This document shows positions 48-16,572 of a DNA stretch of 16,572 nucleotides, one piece after another. This DNA comes from a virus. The stretch lies in the IMG/VR virus record IMGVR_UViG_3300013426_000031; one strand, written 5' to 3'. The notes beneath the pieces were generated by a model that had not been told where the DNA came from, searched no databases, and saw nothing but the letters and a program-made list of their open reading frames with translations. Both the position numbers and the translations under genes were made by a program. Numbering within the stretch: the stretch's first letter is position 1; each line of letters opens with the position of its first letter.

Positions 48-51
48 AATT

Positions 52-90
52 ACCCTCACTTTCTATATATATTATATCAAATTATTTATT
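52..90 (-). promoter_or_regulatory. Class I conserved intergenic motif, partial copy (putative phage promoter) upstream of the partial gene 1..47
   Basis: The plus-strand sequence cctcactttctatatatattatatcaaattatttattattt matches the core of the cassettes at 1848, 6018, 10935 and 14110 (tctttatatatatattatataat). This copy has no hairpin. Confidence 0.4.
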
Positions 91-1828
91 ATTTCGCAAA
101 TGGAACCGCAAAAACATAGTTAGGAACTTTAAGGATAGGTTCAGGAATTGGATTAAATTCTTTGCGCTTTTGCTCAATCTCTTTATCGCGCACAAACAAA
201 TACTTTTCTTTTTCAGTCATTTCATCTACATCAACGATATTACTTACTCCCCAGATGCCTTCAGTATGAACATCTCTATGAACTTTATCGGCCAAATCGC
301 CAAGGTCATAATCATCAAAGCAATTATCACAAACTTGGCAATCATATCTCAAAGTCTTAGCGCACGTCTTTTCTTTATTATAGACAACAATATCAAAAAC
401 ATTGCCGAATTTCTCAAAATCATCTTCTGCCCAATAAGTGTTATCACAAATAGTGCAAGTAGTAAAATGGTCTTGCGCACAATAATCACAATAATGCTCA
501 TTATCATGCCAATACATTTCATCTACATCGAAATAACCACCACAATCATAACACTTAGCAAGACCATAGCAACTATAACAGATGACCGCACTCGAGCCAT
601 CAAATGATTCTTCATCATCAAGCTCTTCACCGCAATCCATACACTCAGTCTCGCCAGAATAATTAATCATATTAATACTGCCATAAATAAGATTATCACT
701 TACATAAGCCAAATGCTCGTTATAATAATCATTATACATAAATTTTGTAGCCATTTGGAATGTTGCAGTATTATTCGGCAAATTAATCTTTTTACCAGAA
801 GCAACGGAATATACGTTGGGAAAATAAGACCAATTCATATTCTTTTCGGCAAGCTCTTTAATCCATTTGAGAACAAAATTGTTAATATCACTATTATGAT
901 AAGGATATTCTTTAATAGTGGTAATAATATCTTTATTCACAATATAAAGACAACGCCATTTCTTATTAGACCAAGTGCGCTTTTCAGTAGAGGAGGGACG
1001 TGCCGGGTCATTACAAAGAGGGTAATAAGGATGGTCCGCGTTTACATATGCCTCAAGGACGACGGCGCTGTTCATCATTTCAACTGTGCCCATACGATAA
1101 TCGCCGACGCTATACCAATTCATGCAACTATCCCAATTACAAGCATTATCGCTCATAGTAAGATAATCCAGGGGATGGATAGATAAACAAACATTACCAT
1201 CAATTTCGCTTGTATTAAGAACTTGAGAATGCCAAATACGGAACTTTTCAAATTCTTCTTTATCCAGTTCAAACCAATCAACAAGCTTTGACATAATGCG
1301 CATAAGCTTCATGCTCTTATCAATCTTCAAAGGCTTACCATTATAATGCGGGCCTCGGTCAAAGATAAAATAATTAACATCTCTATATTTCTCATTATCA
1401 ATAGAATTACGAACAAGAGGCCCATAATCAGTAAGGTCGCTAAGCATGTACCAAATCATCTTATGATTGACATTACTTGGGTCATTGCTTAAATTCCAAT
1501 CACTAAAGTAATCATTGCGGATTTTGAAAAAACTATTTACAAAATAATTGCAGGTTTCAACTTTATCATCTTCGCCAAACATTTCATCAATCATTTTTTC
1601 AAGTTCATCATCACTCTTGGTATAATGAACTTTATTAGAGATAATAATATGACCGCCTAAAAGCTTAAAGAGGTCCTGTTTATTATTATTCCAAAAGCGC
1701 AAACGATACTCAATGGGCGTGCGCGCATTAGGCGCCGAAGTATCATACATCGAGTGCATATACATATTTACATAATCAGTCAACAGTTCTTTTTCTTCTT
1801 CGGGAATGAGCGTAATTAAATCTTCCAT
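89..1828 (-). CDS. Hypothetical 579-aa protein; the C-terminal ~140 aa carry at least 7 CxxC pairs (likely zinc ribbon / zinc finger cluster)
   Basis: The listed ORF is 89..1852. That start lies inside the promoter/RBS, so I prefer the ATG at 1828 (MEDLITLIP), which has GGAGA 8 nt upstream. The C-terminus reads CMDCG..CYSCYG..CYDCGG..CDYC..CTICD..CQVCDNC. Confidence 0.75.
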   Translation of the reverse strand: MEDLITLIPEEEKELLTDYVNMYMHSMYDTSAPNARTPIEYRLRFWNNNKQDLFKLLGGHIIISNKVHYTKSDDELEKMIDEMFGEDDKVETCNYFVNSFFKIRNDYFSDWNLSNDPSNVNHKMIWYMLSDLTDYGPLVRNSIDNEKYRDVNYFIFDRGPHYNGKPLKIDKSMKLMRIMSKLVDWFELDKEEFEKFRIWHSQVLNTSEIDGNVCLSIHPLDYLTMSDNACNWDSCMNWYSVGDYRMGTVEMMNSAVVLEAYVNADHPYYPLCNDPARPSSTEKRTWSNKKWRCLYIVNKDIITTIKEYPYHNSDINNFVLKWIKELAEKNMNWSYFPNVYSVASGKKINLPNNTATFQMATKFMYNDYYNEHLAYVSDNLIYGSINMINYSGETECMDCGEELDDEESFDGSSAVICYSCYGLAKCYDCGGYFDVDEMYWHDNEHYCDYCAQDHFTTCTICDNTYWAEDDFEKFGNVFDIVVYNKEKTCAKTLRYDCQVCDNCFDDYDLGDLADKVHRDVHTEGIWGVSNIVDVDEMTEKEKYLFVRDKEIEQKRKEFNPIPEPILKVPNYVFAVPFAK

Positions 1829-1847
1829 ATTATTATCTCCTTTATTT

Positions 1848-1900
1848 CTCATTCTTTATATATATATTATATAATATTTTTATATAAAAATAAATAAAAA
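1848..1900 (-). promoter_or_regulatory. Class I conserved promoter-like motif (copy 2), driving gene 89..1828
   Basis: ctcattctttatatatatattatataatatttttatataaaaataaataaaaa is near-identical to the copies at 6018, 10935 and 14110. Read on the minus strand it contains TATAAT with an AT-rich upstream region and no clear -35. Confidence 0.55.
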
Positions 1901-1928
1901 CCTCTTAGTCATTTCACTAAGAGGTTTT
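1886..1928 (-). terminator. Rho-independent terminator ending the unit 5983->1947
   Basis: The hairpin has stems cctcttagt and actaagagg (9 bp) with loop catttc. On the minus strand a U-run (TTTTTATTTATTTTT) follows. It lies just 3' of the stop codon at 1947. Confidence 0.65.
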
Positions 1929-1946
1929 GAAAGGAGGTGAACGCTC

Positions 1947-3583: not shown

Positions 3584-3610
3584 AGAATTTAACTCCTTTA
3601 TTCTTTATAT

Positions 3611-3645
3611 AAATATTATACCAAAAAATTTTTATTTTTTCAAAT
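3611..3645 (-). promoter_or_regulatory. Class II sigma70/sigmaA-type promoter: -35 TTGAAA (3643..3638), 17-nt spacer, extended -10 TGgTATAAT (3624..3615)
   Basis: Read on the minus strand: TTGAAAaaataaaaattttttggTATAAT. The same architecture recurs at 8438-8470. Confidence 0.55.
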
Positions 3646-3646
3646 T

Positions 3647-4811: not shown

Positions 4812-5116
4812 ACGTAGTGTTTCAAATATTCTTCATAAGTTGTAATCCACTCACAATAAAGACACTGATTATTAATAAACAATGCCAAATAAACAGCACC
4901 GGTATCTCTTTTAATTACTTTGGCATTAAAAATACTACCATGATACTCTTTATCGCGGTCAATAAGTATTTCATGTTCAAACAACATAATAGTATTATAA
5001 CAATCTCTTGCACGTTCCGATGTCCAATTAACTGTCTTCAAAAGCTTTTCATATCCTTCATCGGTATCCGCACCAAGAAGGAATGTAATAAAATCATTTC
5101 TATTATCCAACTTCAC
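4808..5116 (-). CDS. Hypothetical 102-aa protein; the start codon is uncertain (GTG at 5116 or TTG at 5110)
   Basis: There is no in-frame ATG near the 5' end. GAGGTG lies upstream of the TTG. Confidence 0.5.
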   Translation of the reverse strand: MKLDNRNDFITFLLGADTDEGYEKLLKTVNWTSERARDCYNTIMLFEHEILIDRDKEYHGSIFNAKVIKRDTGAVYLALFINNQCLYCEWITTYEEYLKHYV

Positions 5117-5813
5117 TACACCTCGTCAAATAAGTAATCTTTTGCTTTTGGAAAGTATCAAGATTTTTGATAGTGCCTTTAATACGGTGTTCACTACCTA
5201 CTTCCCAACTTTTAGCTGATGTATTCCAACAGTAAAGGTTATCATATACATCAACAAATGTCATAAAATGGCTAATGCCGTAATAGCCTTCTTTTTCAAT
5301 ATTTTTAACAACAGTTAGAGTGCGCTCAATCTTCTCGCCGACTTCACCTTGCCATTCGCTTGTGCCTTCTTCATACACAAGGTCTTCAATAATCTTTTTA
5401 ATTTCCTTATCACTCTTCAAAGAGCCATCATCATTTCCCACATATTCCCAATTAAGGCGAACCGGCGTAATATCTTCGGGCATATCATTCGGCAATTCAT
5501 CAGTGGATACGATATACCATCCCCACAATTTAGCATATCGCGCGATTGATTTTTCAAACCATTCAAGGTTTGCGTAAGTATTGCCTTTAAAGATAGTAAT
5601 ATAACCCTTTTCAAATCCAAGAACTTGCTTTCTATTGGAAGGTTTGATAATTTCTACTTCAGGATAATAACGTGCATACTCGGTATCAGTATAGCTTTTA
5701 ACGCGCTTAACCTTGCCATCTTTAGTGCGCACATCGCAGTAGCGCTTACCATTTTCAATATAAGTATCACGAACAATCTCAAGGTCTTGATAAGATTTGG
5801 CAACCAGCGCCAT
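5103..5813 (-). CDS. Hypothetical 236-aa protein
   Basis: The ATG at 5813 (MALVAKSYQ) has GAGGAGGG upstream. The listed ORF instead begins at a TTG at 5819. Confidence 0.7.
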   Translation of the reverse strand: MALVAKSYQDLEIVRDTYIENGKRYCDVRTKDGKVKRVKSYTDTEYARYYPEVEIIKPSNRKQVLGFEKGYITIFKGNTYANLEWFEKSIARYAKLWGWYIVSTDELPNDMPEDITPVRLNWEYVGNDDGSLKSDKEIKKIIEDLVYEEGTSEWQGEVGEKIERTLTVVKNIEKEGYYGISHFMTFVDVYDNLYCWNTSAKSWEVGSEHRIKGTIKNLDTFQKQKITYLTRCSEVG

Positions 5814-5983
5814 TAGCAATCACCCTCCTCAAAAAGTTTCTTATAAAGAATATCCAAAGCTTCATTTAACTTATCAACATACTCCGTATCTTCCTCGTCA
5901 TCAAGAGCATCAATCGCGCTCATGCACTCTTCATAAACAACATTATAAGCATTAATAACATTCTCATCTTTAATCTTGTGCAT
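5813..5983 (-). CDS. Small acidic 56-aa protein (MHKIKDENVINAYNVVYEECMSAIDALDDEEDTEYVDKLNEALDILYKKLFEEGDC)
   Basis: It is absent from the ORF track, which omits ORFs shorter than about 60 aa. The ATG at 5983 has AGGAGA 7 nt upstream, immediately after a class I cassette. Its stop overlaps the next start (TAATG). Confidence 0.5.
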   Translation of the reverse strand: MHKIKDENVINAYNVVYEECMSAIDALDDEEDTEYVDKLNEALDILYKKLFEEGDC

Positions 5984-6017
5984 AAGTTTATCTCCTTTAA
6001 ATATTCTTTATTTATCT

Positions 6018-6065
6018 CTCATTCTTTATATATATATTATATAATATTTTTTTATAAAAATAAAG
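6018..6065 (-). promoter_or_regulatory. Class I conserved promoter-like motif (copy 3)
   Basis: ctcattctttatatatatattatataatatttttttataaaaataaag matches the other class I copies. Confidence 0.55.
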
Positions 6066-6090
6066 TCTTGCCTTTATAGGTAAGACTTTA
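6048..6090 (-). terminator. Rho-independent terminator ending the unit 8398->6093
   Basis: The hairpin stems are agtcttgcc and ggtaagact, with one mismatch, around loop tttata, and a U-rich tract follows on the minus strand. It lies 3' of the stop at 6093. Confidence 0.55.
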
Positions 6091-6092
6091 TT

Positions 6093-6491: not shown

Positions 6492-6722
6492 TTACCTCTC
6501 AATCGTTTCATAACCTTCAACATCTACAGTTGCCATATCGCCGATGTCAAATTCCGCATCTTCGGGGACATTGTAATCGTTTTTTGCTTTCTCAATAAAA
6601 TCTTCAATAGCCCAACCATATGCGGACCAATTGTCAACCCTACCACAATCTAATGCCTGAAGCAATAAACTATCCGCTAATAAATCTGTCAACTCATCTT
6701 TAGGTACAAGACAATAGGTCAT
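6492..6722 (-). CDS. Hypothetical acidic 76-aa protein
   Basis: The ATG at 6722 has AGGAGG 8 nt upstream. Confidence 0.6.
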   Translation of the reverse strand: MTYCLVPKDELTDLLADSLLLQALDCGRVDNWSAYGWAIEDFIEKAKNDYNVPEDAEFDIGDMATVDVEGYETIER

Positions 6723-6850
6723 TCTTCTTCCTCCTTATCCTTCTTCTTATGGAAAGGCCAAATAGGAAGATTAGCATCGGCGCGGTAATTCGCCCACTGA
6801 AGAAAACCGCACAAGCCAATAGCAATTACAAGAATAAAAATAGGGTTCAT
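6719..6850 (-). CDS. 43-aa small membrane protein (MNPIFILVIAIGLCGFLQWANYRADANLPIWPFHKKKDKEEEE)
   Basis: It is not in the ORF track. The ATG at 6850 shares an ATGA overlap with the stop of the MetK-like gene. GGAGAG lies upstream. Its stop TGA shares an ATGA overlap with the next start. Confidence 0.45.
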   Translation of the reverse strand: MNPIFILVIAIGLCGFLQWANYRADANLPIWPFHKKKDKEEEE

Positions 6851-7953
6851 CTTAAACTCTCCTTTATTTCATCTACTTTATCAAGTCGTTCCCAAGGACT
6901 ATTACACTCCGGTCTGCCGAATTGCCCAAAACAAGCATACGGAAGATACTGAGTTTCGCGCAAATCAAGATTATTGATAATAGCTTTACCATTATAATTA
7001 AATGTAATGTCCGCGATTTCTTTAAGTTTTTCTACGGATACTTCTGGATTAATTGGATTAAGATTAATCTCAAAAGGCTTATCCCATTGCGCAGTATAAG
7101 CCAACTGAACAGTCATAGCATCACATGCACCTGCAGCGACAAAATTCTTAGCAATATAGCGTGCCATATAAGTGCCATAGCGCCCACAATAATTAATGCT
7201 CTTACCATAGCCGTTTACGCCCATCGGGCAATAAGAACCATAAGCATTTTCTACCGCCTTGATGCCGGACACACCAAAAGTATCGGGAATATCAGATAGG
7301 GGATTAACATAGAATCGGCAATTCTTATCCACTTCATATCCAAGAGTAGCAATATTGCAAATGTTAGTAATGTCTGGGATAATATCCTGTGGGTCTTTTA
7401 CATCTTTGTATCTAATACTATATACAATACTATCAATACACTTGAATTTACCGTCTTCGTATCGCGCACTTACTTGGCATCTACCGTAAGGTAATGCCCA
7501 ATATAGCTCTTGCTTCTGCATTTTACTAAATGTAATTACTGAAATATTTTGGGCAGTAATTTGCGCAATAGGCATAAAATCAGTAGTCTCATTACAAGCA
7601 TAACCATATGCCGGTCCATATTCCCCACTACCAATATCTTCGACAAACCAATTTACATCGGTTCTAATGTTGTTGATAAATATACAAGTATTACAGTTAA
7701 AACCAGCTACATCATTATTATATCCAATAAAACGTAATGTTTCTTTTGCAATTTCTTCATAAGGAATAGTCCTATTTATCTGTCCCACTACCCCAGATAA
7801 AATAACTGTATTAGAGAAGATACTACAATGAATATTAATTAATGCATCGCAATCAAATTGTAAAATATAATCAGTAATACTTTCTACTATTTGGTCGCAT
7901 ACTTTATTGTATTCTCCAGAGAAACTACTTGAACAAGTATAATAGTTATTCAT
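6847..7953 (-). CDS. Divergent S-adenosylmethionine synthetase (MetK/MAT) homolog, 368 aa, with substituted catalytic motifs (possible pseudoenzyme)
   Basis: I aligned it by eye to E. coli MetK across all three domains:
- TCSSSFSGEYNKVCDQIVESITDYIL against [26 protein letters not shown];
- LRFIGY against VREIGY;
- GSGEYGPAYGYACNETTDFMP against [21 protein letters not shown];
- YEDGKFKCIDSIVYS against YDDGKIVGIDAVVLS;
- YMARYIAKNFVAAG against AARYVAKNIVAAG;
- FGQFGRPE against YGHFGREH. Confidence 0.72.
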   Translation of the reverse strand: MNNYYTCSSSFSGEYNKVCDQIVESITDYILQFDCDALINIHCSIFSNTVILSGVVGQINRTIPYEEIAKETLRFIGYNNDVAGFNCNTCIFINNIRTDVNWFVEDIGSGEYGPAYGYACNETTDFMPIAQITAQNISVITFSKMQKQELYWALPYGRCQVSARYEDGKFKCIDSIVYSIRYKDVKDPQDIIPDITNICNIATLGYEVDKNCRFYVNPLSDIPDTFGVSGIKAVENAYGSYCPMGVNGYGKSINYCGRYGTYMARYIAKNFVAAGACDAMTVQLAYTAQWDKPFEINLNPINPEVSVEKLKEIADITFNYNGKAIINNLDLRETQYLPYACFGQFGRPECNSPWERLDKVDEIKESLR

Positions 7954-7954
7954 T

Positions 7955-8398
7955 TTATTCCTCTCTTTTAACTACTTCATCTAATTCAACTATACAAGCT
8001 TTTGCAAAATATTCCCAATTTGAATAATTTTTATCATTCCAATCATAATATTTTAATGCTGTATGCGCTGAACATCTTTCTTGACTATAAAATGTACTTC
8101 CATCCATTTCAATAGGAAAATAATAATTATCTTTATCTCCATAAGGGGTTCTAATAATTATATGTTTATATAAAGCTTTACCTTCTTTATCACATCTATT
8201 AACTGTATAAGTACAATGATTAATATAATCTTCAACCATTGGATTAGTTAAGTCTTTTTTACCAAAATATTCTTCTGCTATTTCCTTTAAAATAGAACTA
8301 ATTAAAAATTGCTGATTCTCTTTATTTCTTTTATTACTAATGAATTCTTTAATTAATTCATCTTTAGGATTATAAAATTTATATTTTAAATAAGTCAT
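7955..8398 (-). CDS. Hypothetical 147-aa protein; very AT-rich gene
   Basis: The ATG at 8398 is the first gene after the class II promoter. Its stop lies 1 nt before the MetK-like start. Confidence 0.6.
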   Translation of the reverse strand: MTYLKYKFYNPKDELIKEFISNKRNKENQQFLISSILKEIAEEYFGKKDLTNPMVEDYINHCTYTVNRCDKEGKALYKHIIIRTPYGDKDNYYFPIEMDGSTFYSQERCSAHTALKYYDWNDKNYSNWEYFAKACIVELDEVVKREE

Positions 8399-8437
8399 AT
8401 TTCTTTTATATATTTTCTTTCTTATTTATTTTATATA

Positions 8438-8470
8438 TAAATTATAACAAAAATTTTTTCTTTTTTCAAA
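8438..8470 (-). promoter_or_regulatory. Class II sigma70/sigmaA-type promoter: -35 TTGAAA (8469..8464), 17-nt spacer, extended -10 TGTTATAAT (8449..8441)
   Basis: Read on the minus strand: TTGAAAaaagaaaaaatttttgTTATAAT. It matches the consensus and resembles the site at 3611-3645. Confidence 0.6.
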
Positions 8471-8480
8471 TAATTATTGA

Positions 8481-8511
8481 AAGAATAAAACGCAAAGCGT
8501 TTTATTCTTTC
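8481..8511 (-). terminator. Stem-loop terminator, likely bidirectional, ending the unit 10920->8502
   Basis: A perfect 11-bp stem (gaataaaacgc / gcgttttattc) closes a 3-nt loop, with A/T tracts on both sides. Confidence 0.55.
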
Positions 8512-8753
8512 ATGGACACTGCATAGTTGCATCCAGTGCGGAACCAGCAGGCTCGAAGGAACTCTTCGTATGTGGAGTACTCATCTTTATGTTCCGGCCA
8601 CCATTCACGGGCAAGGTCTTTAACAAAACCGCATGCTATCTTACGCAATTGCTCTTGCGAAAAGTTGGCATCGCAACAAACATTATCCTTCTCACCAAAA
8701 GGTGTCCAAGCTTCAATAAACTTTTGAGTTAGAGTAAATTCCGGCGTTTTCAT
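8502..8753 (-). CDS. Hypothetical 83-aa protein; GC-rich relative to its surroundings
   Basis: I prefer the internal ATG at 8753 (MKTPEFTLTQKF), which has AGGAGG upstream, over the listed 102-aa form. The listed N-terminal extension overlaps the upstream gene and has no RBS. Confidence 0.55.
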   Translation of the reverse strand: MKTPEFTLTQKFIEAWTPFGEKDNVCCDANFSQEQLRKIACGFVKDLAREWWPEHKDEYSTYEEFLRACWFRTGCNYAVSMKE

Positions 8754-10920: not shown

Positions 10921-10934
10921 TTTTTATTTCCTCC

Positions 10935-10985
10935 CTATTCTTTATATATATATTATATAATATTTTTATATAAAAATAAATAAAG
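10935..10985 (-). promoter_or_regulatory. Class I conserved promoter-like motif (copy 4)
   Basis: ctattctttatatatatattatataatatttttatataaaaataaataaag matches the other class I copies. Confidence 0.55.
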
Positions 10986-11010
10986 CCAGTAGAGAATTAG
11001 TCTACTGACT
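10965..11010 (-). terminator. Rho-independent terminator ending the unit 14096->11011
   Basis: The hairpin stems are agccagtaga and tctactgact, with one mismatch, around loop aattag. TTATTTATTTTT follows on the minus strand. It lies directly 3' of the stop at 11011. Confidence 0.6.
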
Positions 11011-11496
11011 TTAAGTAATAGGTTTATAAACTCCTTTAGGAAGTGTAATAATTATATCATCATCTTCTAATGTTTTAAAAGTAAAGTAAGAGCGCCATCC
11101 TTTATATTTCGGATATGTAATACGCTTTACATTAGGTACTTCACCTTCACGGACCACACGTACAGTAATATAGTTTTTATTTATATCATATGTTTTAATT
11201 TCGCCAGTTTCAGTAAGACAAATGAGACGGTTCTCATCTCCCCAACGTACAAAAGCATTATCTTCAATAGCTTCTAATTTATATTCATATACTACTTCGG
11301 TTTCCATGTCTTCTATATCAGAGAAAGCATAGATTAATCCAGTAGATATAATAAGACATACACATGCGCACATTTCAAACAAACCAAGAAATTTAAAGAA
11401 CCATCCAATTTGCGCGGACAGTGTATCCGGTTCTTCATAAATAGATATAATAATAAAAATAACGGCGAGAATAAAAGCTAAGATAAACCAAAACAT
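11011..11496 (-). CDS. Membrane protein, 161 aa, two N-terminal TM helices
   Basis: The ATG at 11496 has GGAGGA 8 nt upstream and shares a TAATG overlap with the upstream stop. Hydrophobic segments FWFILAFILAVIFIIISI and FLGLFEMCACVCLIISTGLIYAF. Confidence 0.7.
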   Translation of the reverse strand: MFWFILAFILAVIFIIISIYEEPDTLSAQIGWFFKFLGLFEMCACVCLIISTGLIYAFSDIEDMETEVVYEYKLEAIEDNAFVRWGDENRLICLTETGEIKTYDINKNYITVRVVREGEVPNVKRITYPKYKGWRSYFTFKTLEDDDIIITLPKGVYKPIT

Positions 11497-14096: not shown

Positions 14097-14109
14097 TCTT
14101 TATTTCCCC

Positions 14110-14156
14110 TCTCTTTTATATATATATTATATTATATTATTTATAAAAAATAAAAG
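14110..14156 (-). promoter_or_regulatory. Class I conserved promoter-like motif (copy 5, slightly diverged)
   Basis: ctcttttatatatatattatattatattatttataaaaaataaaagg matches the other class I copies. Confidence 0.5.
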
Positions 14157-14180
14157 GAGTTAGATTTTTCTAACTCCTTT
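14135..14180 (-). terminator. Rho-independent terminator ending the unit that contains the RNA ligase
   Basis: A perfect 10-bp stem (aggagttaga / tctaactcct) closes a tttt loop, and TTTTATTTTTTAT follows on the minus strand. It lies 3' of the stop at 14185. Confidence 0.65.
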
Positions 14181-14184
14181 CGAT

Positions 14185-14701: not shown

Positions 14702-16039
14702 TTAAAGCTCCTCTGCGATAGTTTCATCAAGCGGATTTACATCAAGAACGGCAATGTTCTTGAGAAGTTTGTAGGAAAAGTTTTTATGCTTATATGCAGT
14801 AAAAGAAGGCTTATCAACGAGACGAATTACAACACCTTCGCGCACATGACGAGGGTCGATAAGTTCAGGACCATCATAATATTGTTCCGCCTTATGGAGT
14901 ACCCATTCACCTGCAGAAATGGTATCATCTTCATCGCATGCCGGATGCTCGGGGATATAACCGCGCCATTCAACAGGTACAAATTTTACGCCCATTTGCT
15001 CACAACGATAGCGCACATAAGAAGGCGGGTATTCAATAGTATAACCGCTTTCATCGGTATAAGTCATACGATATACCCAGAAGTCATTCTTGGGGCCATT
15101 TACTCCAGTAGGATCACAGCCATAAGAGAAAGTAGTGGTATCGCCGTATTGCTTAATGAATTCTTTATCGCCGGTTTTCTTATTAGATACAGTACCCATA
15201 ATCGGCACACCATCATCAGTATATCCACAGATTTCCATAAAGATTTCTTCGTTTTTATGAAGTTTACCCTTAATTGCTTCAAAGGCATGACGGCGAAACT
15301 CATTAGAGCCATAGAAACCGCCGTCCCAGTCAGTAATCAAAGTGCGTCGAGTGCCATTAATATAGTCATATTCATAAATGGGTTTGCCGGAACGCTTAAA
15401 GAGACGGTCTAAAAGAGAACGGTGATAGCCCTTTAAGACGGGGAAATAACCAATACGATGGCTTGTACCGTCGAGTTTACGCGTAATTTCAATAAGATCA
15501 CCCGGTTTAAAAGCATTAAGATTGTATGCCAACTGGGCCGTGTCCACGTGTTCTGTAAAAAGAGGAGCAATAGGATCTTTGTGCTTGCGCGTCTTGCTTA
15601 CATTAGGGCCATTGGTCTTTGTTTTGTTGGTGCGGGGAATATACTTTTGGCAAATAGGATGACCATTAAATTCGCTTACAAGGTCGCCTACTTTGAGAGT
15701 ATTAATATCACCAAAAGAAGAAAGACAAGAAAGCGGAAGATACGTGCCGTCAGACGGCTCACCGCGCAAACGAATAGTGCCTACGTTGCGCTTGTCGGCA
15801 TCAAGGTAGCCGGTATCCTTTTCGCCCTTTTGGTTCTTACGGCATAGATGATTTATATCACAGAAAACGGCATCAAGCTGAAGTCCAGTGGGAAAATAAA
15901 TGCCGATATCGCCTACCTTAACATCAAGAGAAACGCAAGTATCATTGCCGAAGAAAGTAGCAATTTGAAGGCGGTCGGCGTTGCTATGCGGGCGCAGATC
16001 TTTTACTTTAACAATATAACCACAATGATTAATATCCAT
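14702..16039 (-). CDS. ATP-dependent RNA ligase-like nucleotidyltransferase (Rnl family), 445 aa, with a ~180-aa N-terminal extension
   Basis: The covalent nucleotidyltransferase motifs are present:
- motif I: ITRKLDGTS (putative adenylylated Lys);
- motif III-like: EIFMEICGY;
- motif IV: EGVVIR;
- motif V: YKHKN.
The ATG at 16039 has AAAGGAA upstream. Confidence 0.62.
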   Translation of the reverse strand: MDINHCGYIVKVKDLRPHSNADRLQIATFFGNDTCVSLDVKVGDIGIYFPTGLQLDAVFCDINHLCRKNQKGEKDTGYLDADKRNVGTIRLRGEPSDGTYLPLSCLSSFGDINTLKVGDLVSEFNGHPICQKYIPRTNKTKTNGPNVSKTRKHKDPIAPLFTEHVDTAQLAYNLNAFKPGDLIEITRKLDGTSHRIGYFPVLKGYHRSLLDRLFKRSGKPIYEYDYINGTRRTLITDWDGGFYGSNEFRRHAFEAIKGKLHKNEEIFMEICGYTDDGVPIMGTVSNKKTGDKEFIKQYGDTTTFSYGCDPTGVNGPKNDFWVYRMTYTDESGYTIEYPPSYVRYRCEQMGVKFVPVEWRGYIPEHPACDEDDTISAGEWVLHKAEQYYDGPELIDPRHVREGVVIRLVDKPSFTAYKHKNFSYKLLKNIAVLDVNPLDETIAEEL

Positions 16040-16547: not shown

Positions 16548-16572
16548 TTTGTAAGTGGAGACTTTTAGTCTC

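Follow-up and report, generated by a model that had tools for sequence, protein, structure and literature searches.

What is the AT-rich block of about 45-60 bp that recurs between the minus-strand genes of the IMG/VR virus record IMGVR_UViG_3300013426_000031, and which RNA polymerase would read it? We analysed a stretch of 16,572 nucleotides (nt) from this record, here called the window; positions are window coordinates, and features lie on the minus strand unless stated otherwise. A preliminary description of this DNA had regarded the block, together with the hairpin ahead of it, as a terminator-promoter cassette that divides a train of co-directional genes, and had proposed that the promoter is of a phage-specific class, read with the help of a phage sigma factor or by a phage RNA polymerase. 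The blocks do behave as dividing cassettes. As to the polymerase, comparison with related viral and host loci makes it probable that the blocks are host sigma-A/sigma-70 promoters in the early region of a gut-Firmicutes phage, each joined directly to the terminator that closes the gene group before it.

A block oriented toward the next start codon

Four nearly identical copies, referred to here as class I, lie where the preliminary description had placed them (1848-1900, 6018-6065, 10935-10985 and 14110-14156), behind hairpins that differ from one another. With up to three mismatches allowed, the core ATATAATATATATATAAAG matches seven positions on the minus strand of the window and none on the plus strand, against a chance expectation of 0.18, and 0 of 200 shuffles gave seven matches. 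Non-coding DNA makes up 11.3% of the window and holds all seven matches (P ~2e-7); each is followed, after 23-52 nt, by a start codon that has a Shine-Dalgarno (SD) sequence before it, as had been expected for the first gene downstream. The window matches the reverse complement of a 184,253-bp metagenome contig (ENA ERZ27300225, k119_102594) at 99.994% identity with one mismatch, and our analysis covered 34 kb of this contig (record positions 56479-90571). In this larger piece all 12 core matches are non-coding (P ~9e-10), and every site is followed after 23-70 nt by a start codon of the same strand. Within these 34 kb, the scan for copies inside coding DNA that had been proposed as a check finds them all outside genes. 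The expectation that copies sit only between minus-strand units holds in the window but not in the flanking contig, where a single opposite-strand copy precedes a leftward gene; the orientation of a copy always matches that of the next gene.

Read on the minus strand, a class I copy runs from the hairpin through TTTATTT(A)TTTTTATA(T)AAAAATATTA, TATAAT and ATATATATAAAGAAT to the SD sequence and ATG. The -10 hexamer is a perfect TATAAT at all seven window sites and is followed by AT(A/T)TATA(T/G)AAA(G/A), including at the three sites that carry a host-type promoter. These three (94-99, 3638-3643 and 8464-8469) have TTG at -35 and also TGn, whereas the class I copies have neither TTG at -35 nor TG at -15/-14. 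Their -35 is TTTATT (three of six matches, no G), and their -16 region is TATT or TATA, that is, TRT without the G. Class I and host-type copies differ only in the G-to-T change at -33 and the missing TG. The earlier reading of the block as TATAAT with no recognisable -35 and no TG holds in that TTG and TG are missing; at 17 bp stands TTTATT, one base from TTGATT, the commonest -35 hexamer of the clade described below. What had been taken for a partial class I copy at 52-90 is in fact a host-type promoter, TTGCGA-17 bp-TGaTATAAT. The two other promoters that had been called host-type (3643-3615 and 8469-8441) are indeed so, but they are not unrelated to class I, with which they share the -10 and ATtTATATAAAG.

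Predicted terminators joined to promoters

Five hairpins with a U-run occur in the window, each followed by a promoter, with folding energies of -9.3 to -19.7 kcal/mol and z of -3.5 to -10.8. They begin 0-19 nt past the upstream stop codons and differ in sequence. At these five sites a stable, GC-containing stem-loop and a U-run follow a stop codon, the hallmark of an intrinsic terminator. The arrangement had been described ahead of the four class I copies and is present at all four within the same 0-19 nt. The fifth terminator (8478-8512, -19.7 kcal/mol) stands ahead of a host-type copy, so class I copies are not the only ones to be paired with a terminator. Between relatives it is the structure of the terminators, rather than their sequence, that is kept (three orthologous pairs). 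Both termination and initiation are predicted to occur at these cassettes.

A Firmicutes-like promoter layout in related viral loci

A scan of viral contigs for TATAATATATATATAAAG returned at least 120 loci. Among those listed, 36 have genes whose products are homologous to proteins of this region (25-90% amino acid identity), which places the window phage in a large clade of gut phages of ~120-195 kb. The exact class I 26-mer was too strict a query, matching only two loci in viral contigs; a shorter 18-mer and the upstream-half pattern gave informative matches where it did not. From the 34-kb piece and the 36 loci (37 sources) we collected every TATAAT whose following 12 bases had at most three mismatches, leaving the upstream half unused in selection, and obtained 125 non-redundant sites (126 under a slightly different deduplication key).

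Counted from the first base of TATAAT, the upstream consensus of these sites is T-23 (100%), T-22 (98%), G-21 (87%) and A-20 (90%). The -35 hexamer begins with TTG at 106 of the 125 sites and always stands exactly 17 bp before TATAAT; the commonest forms are TTGATT (62 sites), TTGACA (14), TTTATT (14) and TTGAAA (8). The spacer holds a T-tract (70-83%), an A-tract (up to 94%) and then T-A-T-(G 52%)-n, so that TG is present at 52% of clade sites. Downstream, the block has the discriminator ATATAT, a start triplet T-A-T or T-A-G and the leader AAAGAAUGAGAAAUAAAGGAG.

Published work on promoter architecture divides the spacer into four regions (T-rich beside the -35, low-signal, AT-tract and G/Ex), credits spacers of the T-tract/A-tract type with promoter strength, and places the transcription start 7 bp past the -10 hexamer at a YRY or YRR start element (PMC12641261). 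The same source gives TRTG as the usual Firmicutes extended -10, an AT/AG-rich discriminator for Terrabacteria and an AG-rich initial transcribed region for Firmicutes (PMC12641261). Judged by this sequence likeness, the upstream half of the clade consensus is the layout of a Firmicutes sigma-A promoter. A literature search on the block motif with Clostridia and phage found nothing relevant.

The same upstream half before host tRNA genes

A pattern-ascertained genome scan for the upstream half, TTKATTTTTNNAAAAAANTATNNTATAAT, returned at least 120 loci. Those listed are all gut or rumen contigs of metagenome-assembled genomes (MAGs), mostly Clostridia, Oscillospiraceae, Acutalibacteraceae and Eubacteriales, and about half of them are phage-like. 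The 12 bases downstream, which were not selected for, form two populations. One has 0-4 mismatches to ATATATATAAAG and consists of phage contigs binned into MAGs, with protein matches to the window phage at 22 loci; the other peaks at about eight mismatches, the random expectation. Six sites of the second population, on contigs of 42-50% GC, stand ahead of tRNA genes, 13-46 nt away and pointing toward them (L129, L166, L172, L216, L226 and L239), and 6 of 63 sites before tRNA genes would be very unlikely by chance under a rough model. Two of the six contigs, L166 and L172, were scanned for genes and encode an ABC transporter, PPIase, LexA-like protein, serine recombinase and relaxase, a content that is bacterial or that of a mobile element integrated beside the tRNA gene.

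These tRNA-gene promoters indicate that the -35, spacer, -16 and -10 half of the cassettes is a form of strong promoter native to the likely host group. What follows in the block, its downstream half, would then appear to be the phage's own addition. The spacer can also be written as a palindrome, T5-ATA(TA)-A5, and we considered it as an operator for a phage repressor; we rejected this as the primary reading because published work ties such spacers to promoter strength, and the host tRNA promoters share such a spacer.

Conservation and copying between relatives

Two relatives, L001 and L088, have ~78% overall DNA identity to the window (blastn), whereas orthologous cassettes are ~96-99% identical from the T-run to the SD sequence. 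In the 1848 cassette, the ~75 nt from the T-run to ATG differ from L001 by one substitution and one indel, while the stem at 1897-1928 shows a compensatory change from T-A to C-G and a resized loop. The 10935 cassette has an identical stem in L088 and one substitution in its promoter. At the 6018 cassette, L088 has an unrelated hairpin instead, although promoter and 50-nt leader remain ~96% identical. It follows that selection or recent exchange acts on promoter and leader, and that the terminators are held to structure only.

Copies within one genome also share leader and ribosome-binding-site spacer sequence of no obvious function, GAATGAGA(A/G)ATAAA and GGAGATAAACTT. Promoter flanks are more alike within loci than between them (0.494 versus 0.457; 0 of 1000 permutations reach the observed value). 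Together these two features make some copying or gene conversion between cassettes likely. The preliminary description had argued, from nearly identical blocks behind differing hairpins, that selection acts on the block and not on a copied unit. Purifying constraint is indeed visible in the excess identity of the orthologous cassettes, but the argument from the hairpins fails, as neutral positions are shared too.

Three contigs (L004, L006 and L008) begin or end inside class I cassettes, at window positions ~14131, 10966/6035 and 6046/1869, so the repeats are exact and long enough to break de Bruijn assemblies.

The TTTATT variant

What sets the class I copies apart appears to be their attachment to a terminator. 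At 13 of the 14 TTTATT sites no more than 4 nt separate the hexamer from the end of a perfect hairpin, compared with 34 of the 106 TTG sites (Fisher p=1.6e-5). The fourteenth TTTATT site is the window site at 6018, where the stem has one mismatch. This adjacency makes TTTATT part of the terminator U-tract, which then reads UUUAUUU rather than UUGAUUU. Class I would accordingly belong to the same promoter family, as a variant tied to terminator U-tracts and no promoter type of its own. We infer a trade-off in which a cleaner U-run improves termination at the price of a weaker restart.

Weighing the alternatives

The phage-specific class favoured by the preliminary description would make the block the promoter of a phage RNA polymerase or sigma factor, of the T7 type, of the T4 gp55 late type or of the SPO1 gp28/gp33-34 type. 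The conserved stretch is long, as such a reading would have it, and just past TATAAT the window copies carry TATAAAGA, which agrees with the T4 late consensus TATAAATA at six of eight positions. A contiguous motif without bipartite layout is not what the relatives have, however: they keep two elements at a fixed 17-bp spacing with TTG at -35 in 106 of 125 sites, and host tRNA genes are preceded by this upstream half as well. Past the -10, the TATAAA varies across the clade, where TAGAAAG and TGTAAGA are common, and we rejected the T4-late-like element because its position is unconserved in relatives. Among the genes called in the 34 kb of the ~184-kb contig, Pfam detected no sigma factor, RNA polymerase or activator domain. 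We therefore consider this reading highly improbable. The cassettes might instead be mainly mobile or recombinogenic repeats, alike through recent copying or gene conversion that shuffles small open reading frames (ORFs). The neutral sequence common to copies in one genome, the greater likeness of flanks within loci and the three independent contigs that end or begin inside exact repeats would all suit such repeats, and exchange mediated by comparable elements has been shown experimentally in phages RB49 and phi1 (PMC2839356). Against them, none of the synteny breakpoints in the two relatives compared, L001 and L088, lies at a cassette, and the excess similarity within genomes is small. Copying within genomes also cannot explain a consensus kept across phages whose proteins are 25-55% identical and in host tRNA promoters. 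Promoter function would be compatible with mobile repeats in any case, and as the main explanation we find them very unlikely.

Several points do weigh against unaided host promoters. TG accompanies TTTATT at 3 of 14 clade sites but TTG at 61 of 106 (p=0.02); loss of TG where the -35 is poorer runs contrary to compensation and would equally suit a class that depends on an activator. None of the six sites of this phage without TTG (five TTTATT, one TCGCTT) has TG, which four of the six TTG sites have, and copies with neither the -33 G nor TG are expected to be weak promoters for unaided sigma-A. The rest of the ~184-kb contig may encode a phage sigma factor, RNA polymerase or activator. The downstream element ATATATA(T/G)AAAG of the phage copies is absent from the host tRNA promoters, the pattern-ascertained scan shows that such host promoters exist and not how frequent they are, and the host is inferred from MAG bin names and promoter similarity only. 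On the strength of the TG bias, class I could be a separate, delayed class of the middle type, in which a host -10 is combined with a phage activator, sigma appropriator or modification of the RNA polymerase, and early (TTGAAA/TGn) and delayed units interleave along the train. The -33 T is kept in orthologous cassettes of two relatives, and the T4 middle promoters, with the -10 kept and the -35 replaced, offer a precedent. Yet there is no distinct box, -35 and spacer being those of TTGATT promoters bar one base, and the near-exclusive tie to terminator U-tracts accounts for the variant. TTTATT also occurs together with TG in other phages of the clade (L031, L041 and L122), and the genes called in the 34 kb include no activator- or sigma-like domain. 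A delayed class is unlikely on balance, and of the two interleaving promoter classes proposed earlier, separate types fall away, leaving as residue the tendency of TTTATT copies to lack TG. A related idea, which we hold to be distinctly unlikely, is that the phage-only downstream element (TATAAT-ATATATA(T/G)AAAG plus leader) or the RNA 5' end is the target of a phage-encoded factor. If so, this factor would switch the units with a weak -35 on later, or protect or mark phage transcripts, and promoters that are otherwise host-type would carry a temporal programme throughout a large clade of uncultured phages of gut Firmicutes. For the reading of the blocks as host promoters, it is plausible that the downstream element is simply an optimised consensus.

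Proposed transcription of the early train

If the blocks are host promoters, host RNA polymerase travelling along the minus-strand early train would halt at a hairpin and U-run and begin anew at the TATAAT that lies 30-40 bp beyond. Transcripts are predicted to start with the A 7 bp past the -10 hexamer, and a short purine-rich leader would run from there straight into a strong SD sequence. The train would in this way be cut into independently dosed units, 16572-14185, 14096-11011, 10920-8502, 8398-6093, 5983-1947 and 1828-89, with an internal booster promoter at 3615 in unit 5983-1947. Restart would be weaker for class I units than for those that follow TTGAAA/TGn promoters. The length of the block could reflect that nearly every Firmicutes sigma-A element is at or near its optimum: the T-tract by the -35, the mid-spacer A-tract, the TAT(G) at '-16', the perfect -10 hexamer, the AT-rich discriminator, the YRY/YRR start and the AG-rich initial transcript. 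Exchange between cassettes, by copying or gene conversion, probably helps to keep the copies alike as a secondary factor.

Cassettes and neighbouring genes of the window

Table 1. Cassettes and promoters of the window, listed in the direction of transcription.
Feature	Span (strand)	Hairpin	-35 element	Spacer and -10 element	Predicted +1	Leader and downstream gene	Remarks
Cassette 1, class I	14097..14184 (-)	14152-14181, -16.9 kcal/mol, z -6.4	TTTATT 14149-14154	TATAAT 14126-14131	~14119	SD GAGGGG; ATG 14096	-35 merged with U-tract
Cassette 2, class I	10921..11013 (-)	10981-11013, -15.9 kcal/mol, z -5.8	TTTATT 10975-10980	TATAAT 10952-10957	~10945	SD AGGGAGG; ATG 10920	Hairpin overlaps stop codon of gene 11011-11496; ortholog in L088
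Cassette 3, host-type	8399..8512 (-)	8478-8512, -19.7 kcal/mol, z -10.8	TTGAAA 8464-8469	17-bp spacer ending TGt; TATAAT 8441-8446, then TTATATATAAAA		ATG 8398	
Cassette 4, class I	5984..6092 (-)	6063-6088, one internal mismatch, -9.3 kcal/mol, z -3.5	TTTATT 6059-6064	TATAAT 6036-6041	~6029	Long conserved leader; SD AAAGGAG; ATG 5983	
Internal promoter, host-type	3584..3646 (-)	No terminator	TTGAAA 3638-3643	17-bp spacer ending TGg; TATAAT 3615-3620, then ATTTATATAAAGAAT		SD AAAGGAG; ATG 3583	
Cassette 5, class I	1829..1946 (-)	1897-1928, -17.5 kcal/mol, z -5.7	TTTATT 1889-1894	TATAAT 1866-1871	~1859	SD AAAGGAG; likely start 1828	Site of the initial finding; in-frame ATG 1852 inside leader
Promoter, host-type	48..99 (-)	No terminator	TTGCGA 94-99	17-bp spacer ending TGa; TATAAT 71-76, then ATATATAGAAAG		SD GAGGG; ATG 47	Overlaps 3' end of gene 89-1828

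The window has a GC content of 33-38%, its minus strand is the coding strand of essentially all plausible genes, and it resembles the early or accessory part of a large lytic phage genome. When the whole window was compared by megablast with 50,697 phage records, nothing matched, and a known cultured relative was rejected. The RNA ligase alone has relatives there. This ligase (phrog_968, 14702-16039 (-)) has its nearest cultured relatives, at 42-44% amino acid identity, in the 160-168-kb Bacillus siphophages vB_BcoS-136, PBC2, Kirov and Thrax, which are the sole link to cultured phages that we found. The blocks are not a known RNA element, as Rfam (gathering thresholds) and ARAGORN found no structured RNA and no tRNA in the window.

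The gene that follows the 1848 block is 579 amino acids in the metagenome gene call and 587 in the ORF list; it most likely starts at 1828, with an ATG after GGAG, and not at the in-frame ATG 1852. The 587-amino-acid protein is essentially without relatives among phage records. A complete, three-domain S-adenosylmethionine synthetase resembling MetK (Pfam N, M and C domains; phrog_1569) is encoded at 6847-7953 (-), in the early region and directly behind a host-type promoter. Such an enzyme is unusual on a phage genome, and it could have to do with methylation or with overcoming host defence. Of the genes in the region, the one conserved most widely encodes a 238-amino-acid protein of unknown function (5103-5819 (-), phrog_2319), whose homologues occur in some 20 related viral and MAG loci (39-50% identity). 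Several relatives have this gene directly behind a cassette, and in the window a 56-amino-acid ORF intervenes. The segment of lowest GC in the window, 8001-8500 (20.6%), spans a promoter and a 147-amino-acid ORF (7955-8398) for which there was no Pfam or PHROG match. A 76-amino-acid ORF at 6492-6722 (-) has a weak precomputed Pfam match to PF25708 (Phage_T7_Gp5_9) in the metagenome gene table, and the remaining genes are small ORFs without recognised function.

The window starts inside a 5'-leader hairpin, GGGGAGACUAAAAGUCUCCAC (16553-16572; L003 9443-9492), which may be a 5' stabiliser stem-loop. Just outside the window, upstream of this hairpin, lies another promoter of the cassette type, TTGAAA-17-TATAAT-ATATATATAAAA. 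Further upstream of the gene train, L003 7918-8446 is a 529-bp divergent intergenic region that separates leftward from rightward units. It contains approximately ATGAGTTTTTTTAACACTTTTTATTAACA three times as a direct repeat and is a candidate for an origin or an array of operators. L003 1-5000, also outside the window, contains non-coding stretches of 160-900 bp with GC-rich hairpins and a GC-richer flavour of canonical promoter, TTGACAAA-N14-TGATATAAT, in at least four copies; these stretches may be immediate-early units or genes for non-coding RNA.

Significance and comparison with known systems

The cassettes chart the likely transcription units of a ~184-kb gut phage that is uncultured, and the consensus TTGATT-TTTnnAAAAAAnTATGn-TATAAT-ATATATAGAAAG can be used to annotate early regions across the clade. 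Their promoters may serve as strong expression parts for gut Clostridia. Exact repeats of at least 40 bp fragment metagenome assemblies, as the three contigs ending inside cassettes illustrate. The link between TTTATT and the U-tract illustrates how bases can be common to a terminator and the promoter behind it, with one gaining strength at the other's expense, a point of modest conceptual value. Details of some interest are this overlap, the phage-only downstream element and the near-identity of promoter and leader between diverged relatives.

T4 middle promoters, which depend on MotA/AsiA, keep the sigma-70 -10 and replace the -35. Like T4 middle and late promoters, the class I copies have a -10-like element with a non-canonical or absent -35 and stand beside canonical early promoters. 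They differ in having no separate motif resembling a MotA box, in that TATAAATA is unconserved, and in that no genes for the factors occur in the 34 kb. The strong T5 early promoters PN25, P25 and P26, which the host polymerase reads, reportedly treated by Gentz and Bujard in 1985, are said to be conserved beyond the hexamers, with AT-rich upstream and spacer sequence and conservation from +1 to +20. The SPO1 host-takeover module, according to what Stewart et al. are said to have reported in 1998, has many promoters and terminators among small take-over genes with strong ribosome-binding sites. The window resembles both in its extended conservation and its promoter/terminator pairs among small genes, although the consensus sequences differ and the window is known from sequence alone. 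We know of no description of a -35/U-tract overlap variant for T5 or SPO1.

Measured against the Firmicutes sigma-A architecture (PMC12641261), the family consensus has every element in its place, as have three of the seven copies in the window, with a 17-bp spacing and a predicted start 7 bp past the -10 at a TAT or TAG triplet. The other four copies have T and not G at -33, and TATT and not TATG. Position-by-position conservation, discriminator and leader included, is also far above that of ordinary cellular promoters.

The closest known analogue is the promoter-early stem-loop (PeSL) cassette of the T4-like phages RB49, phi1, PST and nt-1, a sigma-70-type early promoter with a stem-loop terminator between ORFans, for which both functions have been shown experimentally and which is implicated in modular shuffling (PMC2839356, PMC4122927). 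PeSLs and the window cassettes both occur as many repeats between small genes of unknown function (most ORFs adjoining the window cassettes have no Pfam or PHROG function). Both keep the promoter conserved between copies and span from the upstream stop codon to the SD sequence and start codon of the next gene. In most PeSLs the stem-loop is placed inside the -35/-10 interval or covers the -10, and GGGG...CCCC is a frequent form of it, whereas in the window the stem is upstream of the -35 and of mixed composition, and only the U-tract overlaps the -35. The phages are unrelated, with Gram-negative hosts there and Firmicutes-like ones here, and recombination has been demonstrated experimentally there, while the breakpoints in the two relatives compared here lie off the cassettes. 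By this analogy, the window cassettes are members of an already known kind of element.

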